Shown here one piece after another: positions 8,531 to 28,034 of a stretch of 32,000 bases of DNA. The stretch spans positions 600,001-632,000 of the forward strand of contig NZ_CP097765.1 of NCBI RefSeq assembly GCF_023585785.1, read 5' to 3'. Each line of letters starts with the position of its first letter. Within the stretch, counting starts at the first letter, position 1. Under the pieces are notes generated by a model. That model was given only the letters and a program-made list of their open reading frames with translations. It had not been told where the DNA came from and did no database searches. Source of the DNA: Blochmannia endosymbiont of Camponotus modoc (GTDB lineage Bacteria > Pseudomonadota > Gammaproteobacteria > Enterobacterales > Enterobacteriaceae). The translations under genes and the position numbers were made by a program.

Positions 8531-9277
8531 ATTTATACTCTCAGCTATTATATATCATATGATGATAATATTACTAAATAATGCGCTACAAAATACCATC
8601 TACTAAGGCTCTTGTGATTAACATTTTTCAAAACTTTATTTAATCAACATATTTGCATTGACATAATTACCAATGTTACATATGCATGTAATGCATTGAA
8701 TCAGATCTATTGATCTTTTATTAAAATTTAATTTTTAAAAATAACACTCATATCTTATATTACTATTATTTTAATAAATAATCTAATGTAATAAAAATAA
8801 AAAATACTTGTATGTATAACTATTATTAATCATTTTTTAATTATTTTTAATTCAACATAGAAAAAATGTCAGAAATTTAATTGTGCTAATATTTTTGTAT
8901 TATATACATCATGAATACCATGAGGTGTAATCGCACATACACATTTTTGTATAAATTTAAAAAATTAATAATCTTATACGAGTTATTATTTTGTTGATGT
9001 ATATCATGCAAAATGAACTTACATTACAAGTATCATTAGCCACATTAAAAATAGTTTGAGGACTTATACAATACATTATTTGTGGTAGGCTGTTACTTCT
9101 ATAAACAAGAAATTATACACATTATATCAATACTACAGATTTACATCAAAAGATGCAACAATCTTCAATTTTAATAAATTTTTTAATTTTTATTATTTTA
9201 AAGAGACTGTTGCTCCTGAATATCAATTTCATGGATCAAGCAATACTAATTTTTTTGATTGCATATGTAGTTGGTAT

Positions 9278-10922: not shown

Positions 10923-11920
10923 AATTATTTGTCTCTATATTGAATCAATAACGATAATAAGACTGTATTTGGCAGTATCAGTTAATAATAGTCTAAAAAT
11001 AGTAATTATTATTTTTTGAAGTATTGTTTATTAAGAATAATAACTTTTCAGACAATTGTTTATATCTGATAATTAATTATTTTTTTTAATTAACTATTGC
11101 AGCGTATACCTCCTAATTTATTGTAATTTTACTAAATTAATATTTTGGTTTTATTAAAAAATAGCAGACATTATTAATTCAGAATATATATATTTTAATA
11201 TTTAATTTGTGTTGTTTTACTATTTATATTTTATCGGAGTTTTTTTAAATTTGAAATATGACTATCGGAAAAATAAAACTTCTTATAGTTTTGTTAAAAA
11301 ATAATTTTTTTATATTTTATGATTTATTTTTAATATTAAAATTCTATATATCTGCAAATAAACAGATCCAAATCAAAAATACAACAATTTTATTATAAAA
11401 TATAAAATAATATTTTATATTTTTATGAAAATAAAAATAAAAAATTATATATTTATATTAAAATAATATTTTTTGTTGAATCATATATTCTCGTATACAT
11501 TCACATTTATTTATAAAAAATAATAATATTAAAGGATATATATCAGTTAATTTATAGTAAAATATTAACTATATAAATTTATATAACACTTAAATAAAAC
11601 GGATTTGAGTACAAAAATTATATTAAAAACTTTTTATTAAAAATAATAATATTAAAACCTAATTTTTTAATAAATGAATCTACTTCATATATATGCATGT
11701 ATATAATAGTTATTGTTTATATATGCATATGTCTCTGTAGTTAAAGTTTAAGTGCATTAAATTTCAGTATTCAATATTACGTTTAATTAGATTAGTTGAT
11801 TAAATGAAACATTATTTGATAAGATTATAATATAATTAAGAATTGCAAAAATTATCAGATTATATGACCAATACAGATTTTAAATATGAAAAGATTTTAT
11901 AGGTGGGTACTCTGATTATA

Positions 11921-12802: not shown

Positions 12803-13512
12803 AACAATCACCTAAATTTTGTTAATATGTACAAAAATAAACTTTAAAGTTGCAATAATTTTATTTTGTCACGCATTCTTTAATTGAAATTGTTATTTCA
12901 TATATTTATATACATCAATTTAATTTTTAAAAAAAATTCAGATTTTTTTAATGCCTATAAAATTTTATTAATTAAATACATAGTAGTATGCACTATACTA
13001 CTATTGATGATTTTTTATCAAAATTATTGTTTATATTGAAAATATAAATCACTACAATAACACGTTCAATTTTATCTATAAAATAATTAATTTATTATTA
13101 TTTAGTAAAATAGCATAATAAAATATACTAAACATAATACGTTTGAAGTGTATAAAATAAAAGTTTTGTATACGACATATACAAATTTTAAACAATTTTT
13201 ATTGTATTTATTTTTAAGATAATTTTTCATTATAAAATAATTTATGAATTTATAGTAGATTTATATTCCTCATATATATCTTATATAACTTATTTGTTAA
13301 TAATTAAATATAATAAAATATTAAAAAATTATTTTAAAAATAAATAATCATTTGAAATTTAAATCAATCAAATTTATAGACCAATGGTCGTTACCATATA
13401 GCGATTAATAATTATTAATATATATACAAACATTAATATATTTAATTTGATCTTATTATCTTAATGAGATATTTATAATAAAATTATATGTATTGATAAA
13501 TTTAAAATACAC

Positions 13513-13534
13513 ATTACACATTATTATGTGTAAT
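13513..13534 (-). terminator. Candidate stem-loop just downstream of dut
   Basis: A 9-bp perfect stem (13513-13521 pairs with 13526-13534) with a 4-nt loop begins about 10 nt after the dut stop. On the transcribed strand it is followed by GTGTATTTTAAATTT. The stem is AT-rich and weak. Confidence 0.3.
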
Positions 13535-13544
13535 TAACAATATT

Positions 13545-15201: not shown

Positions 15202-15292
15202 ATGATATTGAAGATGATTTAATTTTATTTATACTAACAAAAACTAACAGTTTTTGTTAGTATAAATAAAATTAAATCATCTTCAATATCAT
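15202..15292. repeat. Perfect inverted repeat with 44-bp arms and a 3-nt spacer (91-nt palindromic element)
   Basis: I checked it base by base. Positions 15202-15245 are the exact reverse complement of 15249-15292, giving 44/44 pairs with loop AAC at 15246-15248. The element lies in the divergent coaBC / rpmB spacer and starts 13 nt upstream of coaBC ATG 15189. Confidence 0.97.
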
Positions 15293-15652
15293 TGAATTTC
15301 AGAAAATCTGCAATTACATTGTGCGCAGCATAAAAATCTTATATAATATACCTTAGCCCATTATATATAAAGTAAAAATATATGGGAACATATATAAATA
15401 ATAATAAAAACAAAAATTTAACAACTTAAATCTATTATATTTAGACATATTTGGTGCTATATGAATGTTTAAAATTGTTAATTTTCTTGCGTTTAATAGT
15501 GAAAAATAAAACAACAAATAACAATTATAATATTTTTGGAAATCTTATATTAGGTATTTTAAATAATGTCAAATCTCATAGATTAAAAATCGGAATAAAC
15601 AAAAAATTGTTTTTATTGTTTTGATTATAAATAATTATTCAAACAAAAATTA

Positions 15653-15658
15653 GAGGAG
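15653..15658 (+). promoter_or_regulatory. Shine-Dalgarno sequence of rpmB
   Basis: GAGGAG lies 5 nt upstream of ATG 15664. Confidence 0.6.
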
Positions 15659-15663
15659 AACAT

Positions 15664-16082: not shown

Positions 16083-16109
16083 ATAAAGAAAAGATGCAAA
16101 TTCAACGGC

Positions 16110-16165
16110 ATACTACATAAGCCCCACAGCTCAATATGCATTGAGCTGTGGGGCTTATGTAGTAT
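16110..16165. terminator. Long perfect hairpin between convergent rpmG and coaD (candidate bidirectional terminator / RNA 3'-end stabiliser)
   Basis: Positions 16110-16135 pair perfectly with 16140-16165: 26 bp, 11 of them G:C, with loop ATGC. The hairpin starts 28 nt after the rpmG stop and ends 137 nt from the coaD stop. No canonical U-tract follows on either strand. Confidence 0.55.
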
Positions 16166-16301
16166 AAATATCTAAAATACTATGCTACTAAGTCTACATT
16201 TAGCAGTTTATGTTCATATGTTTTTATATAGTGTCAACATAAAAAAATTAAGTCTACACGTATAATATAACTCTTCAAATTTTCGAGTTTTGATTTTTTA
16301 G

Positions 16302-16817
16302 TTAGAGAAACGAAATGTTTTTGCTTTTTTTCTCAGTATTGCGCAGTTTTTCAATAACCTTCTCAGCGATAAAATTAGGTATAAAACGATCTATTCTCCC
16401 CCCATATTGAGCAATTTCTTTCACTAATTTAGAAGAAAGGCATGCCCATATATCTGTAGATATCATAAATATAGTCTCTACTTCATTAGAGAAGTAATTA
16501 TTAATTTTTGCAAGTTGTATTTCATATTCAAAGTCTGATCTAGTTCTGAGGCCACGAATTAAAATATTCACTTGTTTTTTTTTCATCACGTTTATAGTGA
16601 GGTCATTAAACCCAAACACTGTTACATGATCTAACGTTGCAGTTGCTTGCTTTGCAAATATTACGCGTTCTTCAAGACTAAACAAAGGATGTTTTTGCGA
16701 ATTTTCAGCTACCGCTAAAAATATTTTATCAAAAATTTTATGTGCTCTAATAATTATATCCAAATGCCCATAAGTTAATGGATCAAAAGTCCCTGGATAC
16801 ATAGCCTGAATTGTCAT
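16302..16817 (-). CDS. coaD: Phosphopantetheine adenylyltransferase
   Basis: 171 aa. YPGTFDPLTYGHLDII carries the nucleotidyltransferase HxGH motif, and RGLRTRSDFEYEIQLA and SSKLVKEIA are collinear with E. coli CoaD (159 aa). There is a roughly 12-aa lysine-rich C-terminal extension. Confidence 0.95.
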   Translation of the reverse strand: MTIQAMYPGTFDPLTYGHLDIIIRAHKIFDKIFLAVAENSQKHPLFSLEERVIFAKQATATLDHVTVFGFNDLTINVMKKKQVNILIRGLRTRSDFEYEIQLAKINNYFSNEVETIFMISTDIWACLSSKLVKEIAQYGGRIDRFIPNFIAEKVIEKLRNTEKKSKNISFL

Positions 16818-17521
16818 GATATTTTTATAAATTTATGTTTTTGTGAAAATAAAAAGACTATAAAATATGTATATATATTTCAAATATGCTAAACTACATT
16901 TTGTTTATATGAAGATATAATTTTCAGTGAAAATATAGAATGCCAACTTATTAAATAAATCGTATTAGAAAGATTGACGCGAACATAAATAAACTATCAA
17001 AACGTTTTATAAATTAAATTATTTCATACTTATATTTCCATACATAAAAATATTTTTCGTTAACATTTAATACAATATTTATATTAATAATAAAAATACG
17101 ACGATTAGTTGCTACAATGCTACTTAAGTAAGCTAAATAACCATTTCCAGTAATACCTATATCTGCAGCATCATAATAAAAATTTTAAGCATTTCGACTA
17201 TCTTCTACATTAATTCAACATTTTTGTAATTATACATCTCTCCCAAAAAATATAAATAACCTTAATGTTAAATATTTGTTTATATATACATTTACAAGAA
17301 TCACGATAAACATTGTTTTGATTATATGAAAAAATTATATTTTCATTAAAATCATTCTGGGATAACAGCCATGTCTCATTCAACATGTTATAATATATTG
17401 TAGTTTTTAGTCTAATTTTAGGTTATAGTTAATTTAATAAAAAGTTATTTATAAATATTTTAATATTTAATAACAACTGTTATATTAATTTCATAACCAT
17501 TATAAAACATCGTATGACAAG

Positions 17522-18805
17522 TTATTTTTGAACTAATAAATAATTATCTAACAAACCCAATAATTGCTTTAGTGCTCCTTGATTATGCTGCAGCACTTTG
17601 ATGGCTCTATGACCATAGTTTATACGACACTGTTGATTTAGCAGCAACATAGCAACAGCCTTGACTAAGGATTCCGTATCAGTTACTGTAATTAATCCAT
17701 TTGAATTACATAATTTAACACAAATATCATTAAAATTAAAAGTATACGGCCCCATAATCAATGGAATAGAATGCGCAGCTGGCTCCAACGGATTATGTCC
17801 TCCATGTTTTACTAAACTACCCCCAACAAATGCTATATCTGAAACACCATACAGTAACATTAATTCTCCTATAGTATCATTAATGATTACTTGCGTTTCT
17901 TTAGATGGAGCAACCCCGTTACTTTTCATGATATAAGAAAATCCAGCTTGTTCGGTAATTTTTTTTACATTAATAAAACGTTCTGGGTGACGTGGAGCCA
18001 GAATCATCAGTAAATTAGGAAACCTTTTCAAGAGACGTTTATGTGCTTGTAGTAATAATATCTCTTCTCCTGCATGAGTACTGCTAGCTATCCATACCTG
18101 TCGTTTTTTAATCCAAGTTTTTTTTAAAAATGAAATTTTATTTAATAAATCCTGGTTCATTTCAATATCACATTTTAAATTACCTGTAATAAATAATTGA
18201 TTTTTTTTTAATCCTAACTTAATAAATCGAGAAGCGTCTTCTTTATTTTGAGCAGCAATTAAAGTAATACGTTTCATAATTAACGAAATAAAATAACTAA
18301 ATCTCTTATATCCAGTAAAAGAATGACATGACAACCGAGCGTTAGCAATAATGAAAGGAATCTCGCGTTGATATAATATATTTATGAGATTTGGCCATAC
18401 TTCAGTTTCCATAACAATAACTAATCGTGGCTTAAATTGATTAATAAATCGTTTCATAGCACCAGGTAAATCGTAAGGTAAATAATTGCAGTGCGTACTA
18501 TGACTAAATTTAGATCGCGCCAACTCTATGCCTGTGGGAGTCATCGCAGTTAATGTGATTGTTATTTTTGGATAACGCTTCTGTAAAGCACGTATCAGGG
18601 GGATAGCTGCTAATGTTTCTCCTAAGGAAACAGCATGTAAAATGATCCCATCAGATTGGATAGATTTTCTATAAAATCCGTAGCGTTCCAACCAACATTT
18701 ACGATATGATGGCGATTGTCTGCTGCGCCATAATAATCGTATCCATATTATAGGTTGAGCAATATACATTATAATATTATATATTGTAATATATAGTATA
18801 AACAT
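17522..18805 (-). CDS. waaA: 3-deoxy-D-manno-octulosonic acid (Kdo) transferase
   Basis: From ATG 18805 the product starts MFILYITIYNIIMYIAQPIIWIRLLWRSR (E. coli MLELLYTALLYLIQPLIWIRLWVRGR). HAVSLGET, METEVWPNLI, ANARLS, GGSLVKHGGHNPLEPAA and GPYTFNFNDIC are conserved. The tracked start at 18817 is a TTG 4 codons upstream. Confidence 0.93.
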   Translation of the reverse strand: MFILYITIYNIIMYIAQPIIWIRLLWRSRQSPSYRKCWLERYGFYRKSIQSDGIILHAVSLGETLAAIPLIRALQKRYPKITITLTAMTPTGIELARSKFSHSTHCNYLPYDLPGAMKRFINQFKPRLVIVMETEVWPNLINILYQREIPFIIANARLSCHSFTGYKRFSYFISLIMKRITLIAAQNKEDASRFIKLGLKKNQLFITGNLKCDIEMNQDLLNKISFLKKTWIKKRQVWIASSTHAGEEILLLQAHKRLLKRFPNLLMILAPRHPERFINVKKITEQAGFSYIMKSNGVAPSKETQVIINDTIGELMLLYGVSDIAFVGGSLVKHGGHNPLEPAAHSIPLIMGPYTFNFNDICVKLCNSNGLITVTDTESLVKAVAMLLLNQQCRINYGHRAIKVLQHNQGALKQLLGLLDNYLLVQK

Positions 18806-19988
18806 ATAATATCCCAAAATAATCAGTTATTACATTCATAATGATTAATTTAATCATTTTACATGCATTTAACTATATATCAATATCGCTATGTTTTATA
18901 TAATATATTTTAATAGTCGATATTTATATAAATTTTAAAAAATAATTTATCTGAAAAATTATCTATGTTTCTGCTATTTTTAACAATTATGCTTATAGAG
19001 TATTTTTTTATTTTAAATTAAAAAATAATGAATTCTCATAAATATCCTTTAAAAATTAAACATTGTATTGTATACGATAAAACCATTAATTACTGATTTA
19101 ACATTTTTTGAATAATTTAAATAAATTGTTAATTATGACAATAATTAATGATTAGACAATACTTATAAAAACGATATTTATAACAAATAAATTATAAAAA
19201 CTATAAAATCTGATTAATTTTTATATAACTAAAAACTTAAATTAATCATCCAAACAAACACACATAATATAAGCATATTATTTTTTACATTAATAATTTA
19301 TATTAAAATTAATTATATTACAATATTCACAAATGTGAAAATCTTATAATTTTGTTGGTATAAATAAAATTTATTTATTCAAACTTATAAAAATATATAA
19401 AAATTTATTTTACAAATATATACATGCATCATGTATATAATTATTTTTAATATTAAATAATAATTTAGATGCACAACATAAATAATATTTTTAAAAATCA
19501 AATAATAAGATTAAATTGGAGTATGTACTGTATTCTTTTAGTTTTATCATAATTTATCTATTTCCACCGTAACGTAATGATAGACAACCGGACTACTCAT
19601 TCAGAATTAAATTATGTTAAAAACGATTTTTATTTCTGTAGCTTTAAATATTTTGAAGAATTTATTTTTTCTATGTTAAATATATTTACATTTCGATTTT
19701 AAATTATAAGAAATAATCTATATTAATATCATATAACTATGTATAATGAAATACATATTTCCAATATTGTTTACTGCATTATATTATACATAGATCTTTT
19801 CTGATGCAGTATAAAAGTATGATTACTACGTGTATAATATTTTTTAGTATTGCTGCATAATTACCAGTTACTATATTAATTTTTTTAGATATTATATATA
19901 AATTACGTGTAAAATAAATGTTAATTACTTTATCGGATTTGATTGCAAATTCATGTTATTATATTTCTAATTATATCTTATTATTTTG

Positions 19989-20016
19989 TTTATGCTGATA
20001 AAATTTTATCAGCATA
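19989..20016. repeat. 28-bp perfect palindrome (14-bp arms, no spacer)
   Basis: TTATGCTGATAAAA / TTTTATCAGCATAA; every position 19989-20002 pairs with 20016-20003. It sits in the 1.8-kb gene-free waaA / waaC spacer. Confidence 0.9.
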
Positions 20017-20619
20017 ATAAAACAGTCAATTTATTCGTAAAAAATGAATTTTTAGTAAAATTTCAACAATAAAATTAACAGTATCATGTATTTTAATTGT
20101 AATTTTTTCAAAAAAATAATAAAAATATATTTTTATTTAATCGAAAAATTAATATTTATTATTATTTGAAAGTTTTAATTTTCCTTAAATAATATTAAAT
20201 AGTTAAAATAACAAATACGCACAATGAAAATGTTCAAAAATTTAATATTTGAGAATTATATTCAAGTTTTATACCGATATAATTGTAAGAATATGCTAAT
20301 ACTAACATGATGAAGAAATTTTGGTGTTGTTTGTAAAACAAGCATTCATTCATTAATTAGATCTAATAATTTGAAGTAGTTTATAATTGAATGTTAAATG
20401 ATATTAATTTAAAAATATTGATATTCATCAATAAACAATATAATTTTTTTAGATATTATTCCTTTTATAAGAATACAATTATTTACTTTTAAACCATATA
20501 AACACTATCGTTCCTAACGGGTAGATATCTTTTTATTTATCAAAAAAAAATATCAATTTATAATTAAAGAATTAAAATTAATATAAGGTTTATATGAACA
20601 AGTTTAAGAAAAATGTTTT

Positions 20620-21594
20620 TTAAATATGTTTTAAATTTAAAATTTTTTGTAATGATTCCCAGACGTGTATAGGAGTTAAGTGTTGCATTTTTTTAGTTGA
20701 AGATCGTAAACCAATTTGGTTTTTTCCATATGTTCCAATTAATTTAGGATTAGTTGGTCCATATAATGTTATATTAGGACAACCGAGCGCTGCTGTCAAA
20801 TGACTAAGTCCAGTATCAACAGAGATTACTGCTGTTGCTCCAGATATTTGGATAGCAATTTCTTGTAGCGTTAATTTTGGTAATATTATTATTTGGTTGC
20901 AATGCAATCTCCTCTCTAACCGATTGGTACGTAATTCTTCACTTTTTGTCCAAAAAGGTAATTTAATACGATATCCTGCATATATAGCATATTGAGCAAT
21001 AATACTCCAATTCAATTCCGTCCAAAGTTTTTCAAATTTAGTAGTAGAATGGAAAAATATTAAATAAGGAGCATGATTTTTTTGAGGTGGAAATAAATGT
21101 TTGATATTATACTTTCCTATATAAGATGGTACAGGATATTTTAAGCTGAGAGAAAAAAGCTGTCGAATGCGTTCTACAGCGTGTTGATTTTTATTAGAAT
21201 GATGTCGTTCATGATAAAAAAAAGAACTCATAGGTTCCCGTACACTTATATAGTCCATACCATGTTTTTTCCCACATGTCATACATGTTACTAACAATGA
21301 TGTCTTCAATAAACCCTGAGCGTCAATAATCACGTCATATTTTTTTTTTAATTGTATGCAACATTCACGATATTTCTTCCATGAAGACAATTTATACCAA
21401 TTTTTTATCCAAGATCTAAGGTTTATAGGGATAATTTGACGTATTCCCGGATGCCATCTAAGAATATCAGAAAAAGTTTCTTCTACAATCCAATCAAATA
21501 ATATATTTGGTACAATATTTGATGCATCAGTAACTGCAGGTAAAGTATGTATAATATCTCCCATAGAAGAAATTTTTATAATTAAAACTTTCAT
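20620..21594 (-). CDS. waaC: ADP-heptose:LPS heptosyltransferase I
   Basis: 324 aa. MKVLIIKISSMGDIIHTLPAVTDA (E. coli MRVLIVKTSSMGDVLHTLPALTDA), QHAVERIRQLF and SVDTGLSHLTAALGCPNITLYGPTNP are conserved. It follows waaF, as in E. coli. Confidence 0.93.
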   Translation of the reverse strand: MKVLIIKISSMGDIIHTLPAVTDASNIVPNILFDWIVEETFSDILRWHPGIRQIIPINLRSWIKNWYKLSSWKKYRECCIQLKKKYDVIIDAQGLLKTSLLVTCMTCGKKHGMDYISVREPMSSFFYHERHHSNKNQHAVERIRQLFSLSLKYPVPSYIGKYNIKHLFPPQKNHAPYLIFFHSTTKFEKLWTELNWSIIAQYAIYAGYRIKLPFWTKSEELRTNRLERRLHCNQIIILPKLTLQEIAIQISGATAVISVDTGLSHLTAALGCPNITLYGPTNPKLIGTYGKNQIGLRSSTKKMQHLTPIHVWESLQKILNLKHI

Positions 21595-21616: not shown

Positions 21617-22657
21617 TCAATGTAATAATGTTTTTAATGCTTTTAAAACTTGATCTGGAGTAATATCCATTAAACTGTTATGATAGCCATATAAGCTATC
21701 GCCGTGTCGCATGGTATAATATCCTTCCATACGACGAATCACAACAGATTGAGAAAACAAAGGCGGAGTAAACTTAGGATTACTAGGTCCATACAATCCT
21801 ATTACAGGACGTTTCAATGCGCAAGCTACATGCATTAAACCAGAATCATTACTAACAATGCCTGTGCAGGCTGCTATAATTGCAATAGCTTCTCCTAGGG
21901 ATGTGGTTCCTATAAGATTATTACAATGTTGTTTCATATTTTTGAGAATGCTATGTTGAATAAATCTATTAATTAGTTGATCTTTAGGGGATCCTAATAT
22001 TACTATATGATATCCGTGACGAATTAACCGAATAGCTAGTGTTATGTAATGATAATGAGGCCAACTTTTAGCTAATCCAAATTCCGCGCCCGGGCATAAA
22101 CCAATCAGTGATTTTTTGTGACAATACAAATTAAATTTATATAATACATCTTCAATTTCTTTTTCATTTACACGTAACCGGGGTAACGGCAGCGGACAGG
22201 GTAAATTATAAGAATTTTTTGTAACATTATAATCACATGCCAAAGCGGCATAACGTTGCACCATTAACGGGAATAATTTTTTGTTAAGTATTCTCAAATC
22301 ATTCAATATACCATACCTCATTTCCCCACGCCATCCGGTCCGAATCGGAATACCCGCAAAAAATGGTATTAAAGCAGATTTAAATGAATTAGGTAATATT
22401 ATCGCTTGTTGATATTTCTCATTTTTTAAAAATTTTCCGAGATGGTAACATTTTGATAACTCTAAAACCCCATGTCCGTAAGGAATAAATAATGTTTGAT
22501 TAATTTCAGGCATATGATTGAACAGATCTTTGCACCACATAGGAGTAAGGACGTCAATCTTAATGTTGAAACAATATTTCTTAATCAACAATCGATACAT
22601 ACTATGTGATATCACGGTATCACCAATCCATGAAGGACTAATAACTAATATTTTCAC
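21617..22657 (-). CDS. waaF: ADP-heptose:LPS heptosyltransferase II
   Basis: 346 aa. MKILVISPSWIGDTV, LPNSFKSALIPFFAGIPIRTGWRGEMRYGILND, CPGAEFGLAKSWPHYHY, NDSGLMHVACAL and LYGPSNPKFTPP match E. coli WaaF. Confidence 0.93.
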   Translation of the reverse strand: MKILVISPSWIGDTVISHSMYRLLIKKYCFNIKIDVLTPMWCKDLFNHMPEINQTLFIPYGHGVLELSKCYHLGKFLKNEKYQQAIILPNSFKSALIPFFAGIPIRTGWRGEMRYGILNDLRILNKKLFPLMVQRYAALACDYNVTKNSYNLPCPLPLPRLRVNEKEIEDVLYKFNLYCHKKSLIGLCPGAEFGLAKSWPHYHYITLAIRLIRHGYHIVILGSPKDQLINRFIQHSILKNMKQHCNNLIGTTSLGEAIAIIAACTGIVSNDSGLMHVACALKRPVIGLYGPSNPKFTPPLFSQSVVIRRMEGYYTMRHGDSLYGYHNSLMDITPDQVLKALKTLLH

Positions 22658-22675: not shown

Positions 22676-23638
22676 TTAATTATTATAATGATCAACGTTG
22701 TTGCATGACAACCAATTTAAATAGCGACATATACCTTGATTAAGGTCAATGAATTCCTTACAATAACCTGCCGTTCTTAACTGAGAGATATTTGCCTGAG
22801 TAAATATTTGATAATGATTACGGATTTTTTTTGGCATAGAAACATATTTAATGGTTATATTTTGATTAAAAAAACTTAATACGATATTAGCAACGAACTC
22901 AAACGATTCAGATTTACCTGTTCCACAATCAAAAATTCCAGATATTTTATTATTCCAGGCCCAAAGATTTATATCAACTATATCTTCAATATATATAAAA
23001 TCTCGTTTTAACTGTTTACTTCCAATAAATAGTGTTGGGTGTTTTTTACTGATAATTTGTCGATATAATTGAAATATTATACTAGCCATACTACCTTTAT
23101 GTGTTTCACAGGGACCATAAACATTAAAATATCTTAATCCACAAACCTGAGATGCAACTTTTGGTAATATAGCGCGCACATATTGATCAAATAAAAATTT
23201 GGAATAACTGTATACATTCATGGGTTGTTCATATGCCTGGGAATGCAGAAGCATGCTGGTATCTCTACCATACACTGATGCAGAAGAAGCGTATATAAAA
23301 GGAATTTTGTTTTTAACACAATAAAATAATAGATCTTTAGAATATTGATAATTATTCTCCATCATATACTTACCATCCCATTCAGTAGTGGAAGAGCAAG
23401 CTCCTTCATGAAACACTACATCTATATCCTTAACATAAGAATTAACAGAATTATTCAGTATATTATTGATAAAGCAATTTTTATCTATATAGTCTGAAAT
23501 ATACAAATTTTTTAGATTGTTATATTTTTTTCCATTTTTTAAATTATCCACTACTAAAATATTTTTGTATGCAATTTTATTTAAAGCCTTAATAATATTG
23601 CAACCTATAAACCCTGCTCCACCAGTAACCACAATCAT
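22676..23638 (-). CDS. hldD: ADP-L-glycero-D-manno-heptose 6-epimerase
   Basis: 320 aa. MIVVTGGAGFIGCNI (Rossmann fold), FHEGACSSTTEWDGKYMMENNYQYSK, YSYSKFLFD (YxxxK), RYFNVYGP and HKGSMAS are near-identical to E. coli HldD/RfaD. The hldD-waaF-waaC order matches E. coli. Confidence 0.95.
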   Translation of the reverse strand: MIVVTGGAGFIGCNIIKALNKIAYKNILVVDNLKNGKKYNNLKNLYISDYIDKNCFINNILNNSVNSYVKDIDVVFHEGACSSTTEWDGKYMMENNYQYSKDLLFYCVKNKIPFIYASSASVYGRDTSMLLHSQAYEQPMNVYSYSKFLFDQYVRAILPKVASQVCGLRYFNVYGPCETHKGSMASIIFQLYRQIISKKHPTLFIGSKQLKRDFIYIEDIVDINLWAWNNKISGIFDCGTGKSESFEFVANIVLSFFNQNITIKYVSMPKKIRNHYQIFTQANISQLRTAGYCKEFIDLNQGICRYLNWLSCNNVDHYNN

Positions 23639-27302: not shown

Positions 27303-28034
27303 CAATAACTTAATAAGCCTTACTATATATAAAATATACATATAGTATTTATGTACACTACTGCTAATAAACATAATCTAAAATACCGCCACACATATCA
27401 AGTATTTAAAAGTTAGTATATTTATGTAATAATTAATATATGAAAAATATTCAATATTTTTTATTAAAAAAATTGATAATGTACCTGGAGAACGCAGATG
27501 TATTATGCTTAATATGTAATTTTAATTGCACATAATATATCAATATAATTTATGCATTGTATATAAAGTTAAAAATAATCGTATATTCGATATATCAATT
27601 ATATTGATTAAATATGTTTTCTTTTCATATTTCAATACCTTGTAAGATAATCCTCGTGATATAATTCATATAATTGAAATCGTTTGCTAATATGATCGTA
27701 TATTAATATCAGTATTATATCATAAATGTACAAAATTAATATACTTCACTACAAGTAAATACATGCATATTGTTATCATAATAAATAATTAAAATAAATA
27801 ATACTTCCAATATTCAATATTTAGAAAACATATAAGATAAATTTTTTAATTTAATTAAAATACTAATAAATTAAAAATTAACAATAATTTCACATATAAT
27901 TGTTATATATGTATTTGATACAGCCTTTTATTTTTGTATATTCATATAATAATTATATTTTTATTGTCATTTATTTTGTATAACAACATGATTATAGTCT
28001 GCTGCGCATAACAACATAATAGAGTTCTGTGTTT

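Follow-up and report, generated by a model that had tools for sequence, protein, structure and literature searches.

The 1814-nt spacer between waaC and waaA in the Blochmannia endosymbiont of Camponotus modoc (positions 18806-20619 of the 32,000-nt stretch analyzed here, hereafter the window) is most probably a WaaG/WabG-family GT4 gene, together with its flanks, that has decayed completely and drifts neutrally. It is synteny and length that would tie the spacer to this gene: in the Polyrhachis symbiont B. turneri, the identical position is occupied by an interval of 1525 nt with an intact 380-aa GT4 gene inside, so the C. modoc spacer matches the gene plus flanking DNA. In sequence, the spacer is not a recognizable pseudogene, as it has no residual similarity to an intact homologue. 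It diverges at the neutral rate and contains no conserved ORF.

The waaC-waaA interval and its neighbours

The genes around the spacer all lie on the minus strand, and identification with NCBIfam bore out the earlier note, which had described hldD, waaF, waaC, waaA and coaD as intact. hldD (ADP-heptose 6-epimerase, 22676-23638), waaF (heptosyltransferase II, 21617-22657) and waaC (heptosyltransferase I, 20620-21594) were also recovered by tblastn; WaaF has an exact GenBank protein match and WaaC is identical to URJ26208.1 from the C. modoc symbiont. The gaps of 18 nt and 22 nt reported within hldD-waaF-waaC are exact. The Kdo transferase gene waaA (17522-18805; NF004385, 643 bits) encodes 427 aa from the ATG at 18805, with an ORF that reaches upstream to a TTG at 18817; its product is 56% identical to E. 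coli WaaA and the BPEN orthologue is likewise 427 aa long. coaD (16302-16817; NCBIfam, tblastn and outgroup synteny) closes the ancestral waa cluster and is followed on the opposite strand by rpmG and rpmB.

The ORF-free interval described in the earlier note is real: the longest ORF in any frame of the spacer has 41 aa. At 16% GC this is the chance expectation, and the lack of long ORFs marks the stretch as non-coding, no more. The GC content of the spacer (13-18%, 0.164 overall, no strand assigned) contrasts with 31.5% for coding DNA, which makes up about two thirds of the window, and falls within the range of 0.13-0.21 found for the intergenic regions of the window. Among these 23 regions the spacer is the longest, and nine more measure 460-1000 nt each at equal GC. 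The spacer thus sits at the upper end of a familiar class and does not stand alone. Its length is roughly tenfold the median intergenic length of B. pennsylvanicus, 172 bp according to Williams and Wernegreen (2010; PMC3017870).

A second scar, missed by the earlier note, lies between waaA and coaD (16818-17521, 704 nt, AT-rich, no strand assigned). In B. turneri, B. obliquus and all outgroups, a GT2 gene, waaE/kdtX, sits at this position. No residual protein similarity was detected in the 704-nt gap by tblastn, and its identity between the C. modoc symbiont and BPEN (0.888) equals neutral divergence. By synteny, a further gap of 219 nt (16083-16301, no strand assigned) falls at the mutM position between coaD and rpmG, where only B. 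obliquus and the outgroups retain an intact mutM.

Gene order in relatives and the search for remnants

Outgroup loci were located with a GT4 alignment and their genes were then mapped. In Sodalis RH21, Biostraticola, Rahnella, Pantoea and Acerihabitans the whole waa cluster lies on one strand in the order hldD-waaF-waaC-[~5-6 kb]-GT4-waaA-GT2(waaE)-coaD, after which mutM, rpmG and rpmB follow on the opposite strand. The ~5-6 kb block holds a waaJ-like GT8 gene, waaL, a waaZ-like gene and waaQ, and the GT4 gene is found directly upstream of waaA. The surviving order in the window (hldD, waaF, waaC, waaA, coaD, then the mutM-rpmG-rpmB segment) is identical to that of the Klebsiella/Serratia/Sodalis waa cluster (gene roles in PMC5485987), and the two scars fall exactly at the positions of its wabG-like GT4 and waaE genes. 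Unlike in this type of cluster, the outer-core, ligase and HepI-branch genes are all gone and only lipid A-Kdo2-Hep2 is encoded.

In B. turneri, the ~5-6 kb block of the outgroups is already down to the 264-nt gap between waaC and the GT4 gene (118 nt follow the gene on its other side), which indicates that most outer-core and ligase genes had gone by the time the symbionts of Polyrhachis and Camponotus separated. The B. turneri GT4 (BTURN675_610) is ~50% identical to proteins of Sodalis, Rahnella and Pantoea that are named UDP-glucose:(heptosyl)LPS alpha-1,3-glucosyltransferase or RfaG in the sources, and only 24% identical to E. coli WaaG. Identity to the gene of the Klebsiella/Sodalis type is 46-53% (46-47% for Klebsiella and Raoultella), and the Klebsiella/Raoultella counterpart corresponds to wabG by position, directly after waaQ. 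The wabG product is reported to act on heptose as a UDP-galacturonic acid transferase (PMC5485987). From these similarities we call the B. turneri protein a putative outer-core-initiating GT4 of the WaaG/WabG family, with no donor sugar assigned. In B. turneri and B. obliquus, waaA is directly followed by a GT2 gene whose homologues are named (heptosyl)LPS beta-1,4-glucosyltransferase or KdtX, i.e. WaaE. An amino-acid composition screen gave no Blochmannia-like GT4 gene beyond that of B. turneri among the first 57 of 120 homologues listed.

These differences in gene content are already tabulated. In Table S3 of Williams and Wernegreen (2015; PMC4389277), BTURN675_610 is listed for B. turneri alone, between rfaC and waaA, BOBLI757_621/BTURN675_612 come after waaA, and galU and ugd are missing from Camponotus Blochmannia. 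For genes unique to B. turneri, the same study invokes independent loss in B. obliquus and in Camponotus Blochmannia (PMC4389277).

The earlier note had proposed that the scar replaces the whole outer-core/O-antigen-ligase block, with the E. coli arrangement (waaL and a divergent waaQ operon) as baseline and the less AT-rich islands as possible last gene remnants. Its statement on E. coli K-12 was confirmed, as waaL and the waaU-waaQ block do sit between waaC and waaA, and a gene-loss scar does lie where relatives carry outer-core genes. With 5-6 kb of outer-core and ligase genes in the outgroups at this place, the block is indeed missing in a loose positional sense. Yet the 1.8 kb are very unlikely to be the collapsed residue of an entire E. 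coli-type waaL plus waaQ-waaU block: the outgroup cluster is co-directional, of the Klebsiella/Sodalis type with GT4 adjoining waaA, and contains no divergent operon, and in B. turneri nothing of the block remained except one GT4 gene and a 264-nt gap. In addition, Waa proteins of K-12 and Sodalis gave no signal, and the GC-richer islands do not stand out: they have no Waa similarity, their identity between the C. modoc symbiont and BPEN (0.92 and 0.84) lies within that of 60-nt windows over the spacer (0.78-0.95), and they fold like shuffled sequences (z between -0.5 and 0.5).

The search for residual gene sequence was equally blank for the GT4 gene that we favor as the source of the spacer. 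With all E. coli K-12 Waa proteins as tblastn queries against the window, strong matches were obtained for hldD, waaF, waaC, waaA, coaD, rpmG and rpmB, and no match in the gap; the remnants of WaaL, WaaQ, WaaG or WaaP that the earlier note had thought worth looking for were not detected in the interval. When B. turneri GT4 and GT2, B. obliquus GT2 and MutM, and Sodalis (SOPE) proteins (WaaZ-like, WaaL, GT4 and GT2) were run by tblastn against 17 spacers of 10 lineages, the output was noise on inconsistent strands, and on the C. modoc spacer K-12, Sodalis and B. turneri proteins all remained at E>0.05. A profile HMM of 61 WaaG/WabG-family proteins scored at most 3 bits on six-frame translations of the spacers, equal to the controls (20 shuffles per spacer), while the B. 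turneri interval used as positive control reached 577 bits. Majority and GC-favoring ancestral consensus sequences of four aligned spacers likewise stayed at shuffle level, with no GT4 signal. The 1252-nt gap at the site of the missing waaF in B. vafra is just as blank to tblastn, which indicates that genes of this group usually erode completely while their length is kept.

Length and divergence of the spacer across Blochmannia

The orthologous locus was taken from eleven other Blochmannia lineages via exact-protein look-ups. In the 11 lineages without the GT4 gene, the C. modoc symbiont included, the distance between waaC and waaA ranges from 160 to 1891 nt: 160 nt in Logan assembly L012, 193 nt in B. 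obliquus, 306 nt in B. floridana, 429 nt in B. vafra, 774 nt in the symbiont of Camponotus sp. (P0026), 951 nt in Logan assembly L013, 1148 nt in B. ocreatus, 1750 nt in the C. nipponensis symbiont, 1757 nt in C-003, 1814 nt in the C. modoc symbiont and 1891 nt in B. pennsylvanica. The four longest spacers exceed the whole B. turneri interval by 225-366 nt, and this extra length is either added ancestral DNA (e.g. a waaQ remnant) or the outcome of net insertions. In a rough NJ tree of HldD, WaaC and GpsA, B. obliquus and B. turneri are basal, with B. turneri between B. obliquus and the Camponotus clade; short spacers group in the floridana/vafra clade, and the modoc clade has the long ones. 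The P0026 lineage, nested in the pennsylvanica clade, has ~1 kb of the spacer gone. The C. modoc spacer can be aligned end to end with those of B. pennsylvanica, C-003 and the C. nipponensis symbiont, indicating that it was inherited. The earlier note had called the spacer large for a genome under deletion bias. Its size has an explanation in the literature, where long Blochmannia spacers are linked to gene losses and faster deletion is inferred for the vafer and floridanus lineages than for pennsylvanicus (PMC3017870).

The comparison among sister strains, which the earlier note had suggested as a check, showed an interior at neutral divergence in addition to the wide range of lengths. Identity between the C. 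modoc symbiont and BPEN is 0.882 for the spacer, 0.81-0.92 for other intergenic regions, 0.90-0.94 for third codon positions and 0.93-0.97 for whole genes. The alignment of the two spacers contains ~117 gap columns, with one indel of ~90 nt. Identity of the spacer is 0.67 to C-003 and 0.52 to the C. nipponensis symbiont, comparable to other intergenic regions. The spacer contains four small ORFs, all of which are broken in BPEN. An Rfam search of the spacer gave no match at gathering thresholds nor at E<=1, and scans for tRNAs and terminators found none.

We consider it very unlikely that the spacer or its interior is functional non-coding DNA under selection, be it a small RNA, a long waaA leader or a structural or spacing element. 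Such a role would fit the near-constant length of 1750-1891 nt in lineages whose intergenic DNA is only ~52-67% identical, and a strong hairpin at 19985-20022. The interior, however, diverges like other intergenic DNA and third codon positions, the P0026 lineage lost ~1 kb of it and other lineages keep just 160-430 nt, and neither an Rfam match nor a conserved ORF is present. The hairpin, a near-perfect palindrome with a 12-bp stem (no strand assigned; folding z of -3.7 and -4.2), is specific to the C. modoc symbiont, as the stem is broken in BPEN and C-003; no T-run follows it, and it is probably without function.

The only block of the spacer conserved across lineages of the pennsylvanica clade lies next to waaA (18828-18897, minus strand); its four-way identity is 0.77, compared with 0.38 on average over the spacer (sd 0.18). 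Five lineages retain it, among them the P0026 symbiont despite the loss of ~1 kb of spacer. Within it, a sigma-70-like match, TTGATA-N16-TAAAAT (18856-18883, minus strand), agrees with the consensus at 10 of 12 positions and is likewise retained in the five lineages; the end of the -10 hexamer lies 51 nt upstream of the ATG of waaA. Sigma-70-like matches in the region number 35, compared to 30.7 expected from shuffles, and it is thus only conservation that singles out this one. The block is presumed to be the promoter and 5' leader of waaA.

Spacer length raises two further points. The four lineages with a spacer of 1.75-1.9 kb carry neutral DNA near substitution saturation, and it is conceivable, though very unlikely in our view, that their near-constant length is not passive, either because there is no net deletion bias in the pennsylvanica clade or because the interior is kept for an unrecognized role (small RNA, long-range control of waaA or chromosome organization); if true, this would run counter to the usual view that obligate endosymbionts lose DNA steadily. 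Secondary growth from a short spacer like that of B. obliquus or B. floridana, by duplication, slippage or foreign/mobile insertion, is highly improbable: the short cases that branch earliest (193 nt; 160-430 nt) could be read as ancestral, and the spacers of the C. modoc symbiont and BPEN do differ by the ~117 gap columns with the ~90-nt indel, but B. turneri, branching off between B. obliquus and the Camponotus clade, carries the full gene, the spacer has tiny tandem repeats and no large internal ones, no similarity to plasmids was found for it, its length fits a gene plus flanks, and to our knowledge Blochmannia genomes contain no mobile elements.

Decay of a GT4 gene would account for the locus as follows, and we infer the order of losses from the comparison of relatives. 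A Sodalis-like ancestor would have carried a co-directional cluster, hldD-waaF-waaC-[GT8, waaL, waaQ, others]-GT4-waaA-waaE-coaD, and most of the outer-core/ligase block would have been deleted before the symbionts of Polyrhachis and Camponotus diverged, leaving a single GT4 gene of the BTURN675_610 type adjoining waaA. In Camponotus symbionts the GT4 gene would then have been inactivated, once or several times, and waaE, galU and ugd lost along with it. In the slowly deleting pennsylvanica/modoc clade the dead DNA may have stayed at about gene length, and accumulating substitutions would have taken it to the intergenic AT equilibrium and wiped out protein similarity. The spacer would now be functionless except for its last ~70-90 nt, which may serve as promoter and leader and allow transcription of waaA independent of waaC. 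The cell would be left with lipid A-Kdo2-HepI-HepII, unable to attach an outer core or O-antigen.

The predicted glycolipid and its place among known gene losses

The LPS gene list used here is the published pan-Camponotus Blochmannia list, compiled from four sister-species genomes and not from the C. modoc symbiont itself, in which a few genes with a locus tag only remain uncharacterized. It contains lpxA, lpxB, lpxC, lpxD, lpxH, lpxK and htrB for lipid A, kdsA, kdsB and gutQ for Kdo, gmhA, gmhB, hldE and hldD for heptose, rfaC, rfaF and waaA for the core, and msbA and lptA-G for transport; no other waa gene is listed, nor lpxM or galU, and ugd is found in B. turneri only (PMC4389277). The inner-core genes of the window are under purifying selection, with identities between the C. 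modoc symbiont and BPEN of ~95% over the whole gene versus ~90% at third positions. From gene content, the LPS of the C. modoc symbiont is likely lipid A-Kdo2-HepI-HepII with no outer core or O-antigen attachment. Since galU is the source of UDP-glucose, the loss of transferases together with the loss of sugar-nucleotide supply is coherent and supports a glycolipid that ends at HepII. The deep-rough, two-heptose LPS put forward in the earlier note is a reasonable prediction in view of the intact inner core and a sister-species gene list that lacks outer-core genes, ligase and galU.

The waaG mutants of E. coli and Salmonella are deep-rough and of the Rd1 chemotype. Like theirs, the predicted glycolipid of the symbiont would stop after HepII, lacking outer core and O-antigen. 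Unlike in these laboratory mutants, the state in the symbiont would be natural and fixed, waaP, waaY, waaQ and lpxM are also missing from the published Blochmannia list, and the GT4 that was lost (judged by the B. turneri copy) differs from E. coli WaaG as strongly as stated above.

That long spacers mark gene losses in Blochmannia was described by Williams and Wernegreen in BMC Genomics; their paper gives median spacer lengths of 114-172 bp and reads spacers of 663-942 bp as severely eroded gene remnants (PMC3017870). The waaC-waaA spacer resembles these cases in being far above the median, in having a syntenic gene site in a relative, in the disappearance of similarity and in being longer in pennsylvanicus than in floridanus and vafer. 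It differs in size from the example at the yggS site (942 bp) by extending over ~1.8 kb, and the waaC-waaA locus is not discussed in the available part of that paper (PMC3017870). The main text of PMC4389277 never uses the terms 'glycosyltransferase', 'LPS' or 'waa'; the genes are thus not named there as LPS-core transferases and the consequence for LPS is not discussed. In the literature searched, we found no paper that mentions rfaG together with Blochmannia. The spacer is a clear instance of a known pattern with an ordinary explanation, and current understanding is unchanged, as both the phenomenon and the gene-content differences were already published. New here are the assignment of the lost genes to the LPS-core transferases, the gene arrangement in the outgroups, the series of spacer lengths and the tests for neutrality.

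Dead genes of the pennsylvanica clade keep their length long past any memory of their sequence, which makes them useful for the calibration of deletion rates, and for annotators a gene-sized AT-rich gap is a flag for gene loss. For the biology of these symbionts, the locus provides a worked example of the stepwise trimming of a surface glycolipid: the first losses would have been the ligase and much of the outer core, followed by the one remaining outer-core GT4, the GT2 of the HepI branch (waaE) and the supply of UDP-sugars (galU, ugd). In some lineages the inner core is decaying as well, with waaF absent in B. vafra and L012 and split in the C. nipponensis symbiont and L013, and with waaA split in L012, so that waaF and even waaA are breaking down now.

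Probable gene losses near waaA and possible ones elsewhere in the window

The AT-rich gap of 704 nt between waaA and coaD (16818-17521) is a second gene-sized ghost. Exactly this position is occupied in B. turneri, B. obliquus and each of the outgroups (Sodalis, Biostraticola, Rahnella, Pantoea and Acerihabitans) by a GT2 gene of roughly 750 nt, namely WaaE/KdtX, the heptosyl-LPS beta-1,4-glucosyltransferase; residual similarity to this gene was absent from the gap. Two shorter gaps mark further losses in the same neighbourhood: 16083-16301 at the position of mutM, intact copies of which are confined to B. obliquus and the outgroups, and 15202-15663, where E. coli carries yicR/radC. Coding sequence makes up only about two-thirds of the window, and five other long intergenic regions of 608-998 nt with a GC content of 0.15-0.21 (10923-11920, 12812-13544, 27303-28028, 8531-9152 and 1910-2517) may be relics of lost genes as well.

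The waaA start and a palindrome in the waaC-waaA spacer

The waaA ORF extends beyond the ATG at 18805 to a TTG at 18817. The ATG is the likelier start, since it yields 427 aa, matching the B. pennsylvanica orthologue, and is preceded a few bases upstream by GGGA. In the C. nipponensis symbiont the equivalent ATG is now ATA and the called start lies downstream. Within the spacer, the near-perfect palindrome TTATGCTGATAA-AATT-TTATCAGCATAA (19985-20022; folding z about -4) has probably arisen by chance or only recently, because it is disrupted in B. pennsylvanica and in the Blochmannia lineage C-003 and has no T-run.

Inner-core decay in other Blochmannia

The inner-core pathway itself is eroding in other Blochmannia. 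At the orthologous loci, waaF is absent from B. vafra, where a blank gap of 1252 nt remains (L009 6749-8000). The C. nipponensis symbiont (L006 6938-7977) and one Logan assembly (L013 4938-5983) have a split waaF; in a second Logan assembly (L012 5972-8436) waaF is absent and waaA is split into pieces of 230 aa and 161 aa. WaaC measures 236 aa in one B. pennsylvanica strain (P0005). In C-003, coaD is split (L008 12439-12971).

The retained GT4 gene and UDP-sugar supply

The GT4 gene retained by B. turneri (L010 9249-10391) shares only 24% identity with E. coli WaaG, whereas its identity is 46-53% to the gene that follows waaQ, at the wabG position, in clusters of the Klebsiella and Sodalis type. 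According to a published gene-order table (Williams & Wernegreen 2015, Table S3, PMC4389277), ugd is listed for B. turneri alone among Blochmannia, and only B. turneri and B. obliquus retain galU. This distribution suggests that loss of the transferases was accompanied by loss of the UDP-sugar supply.
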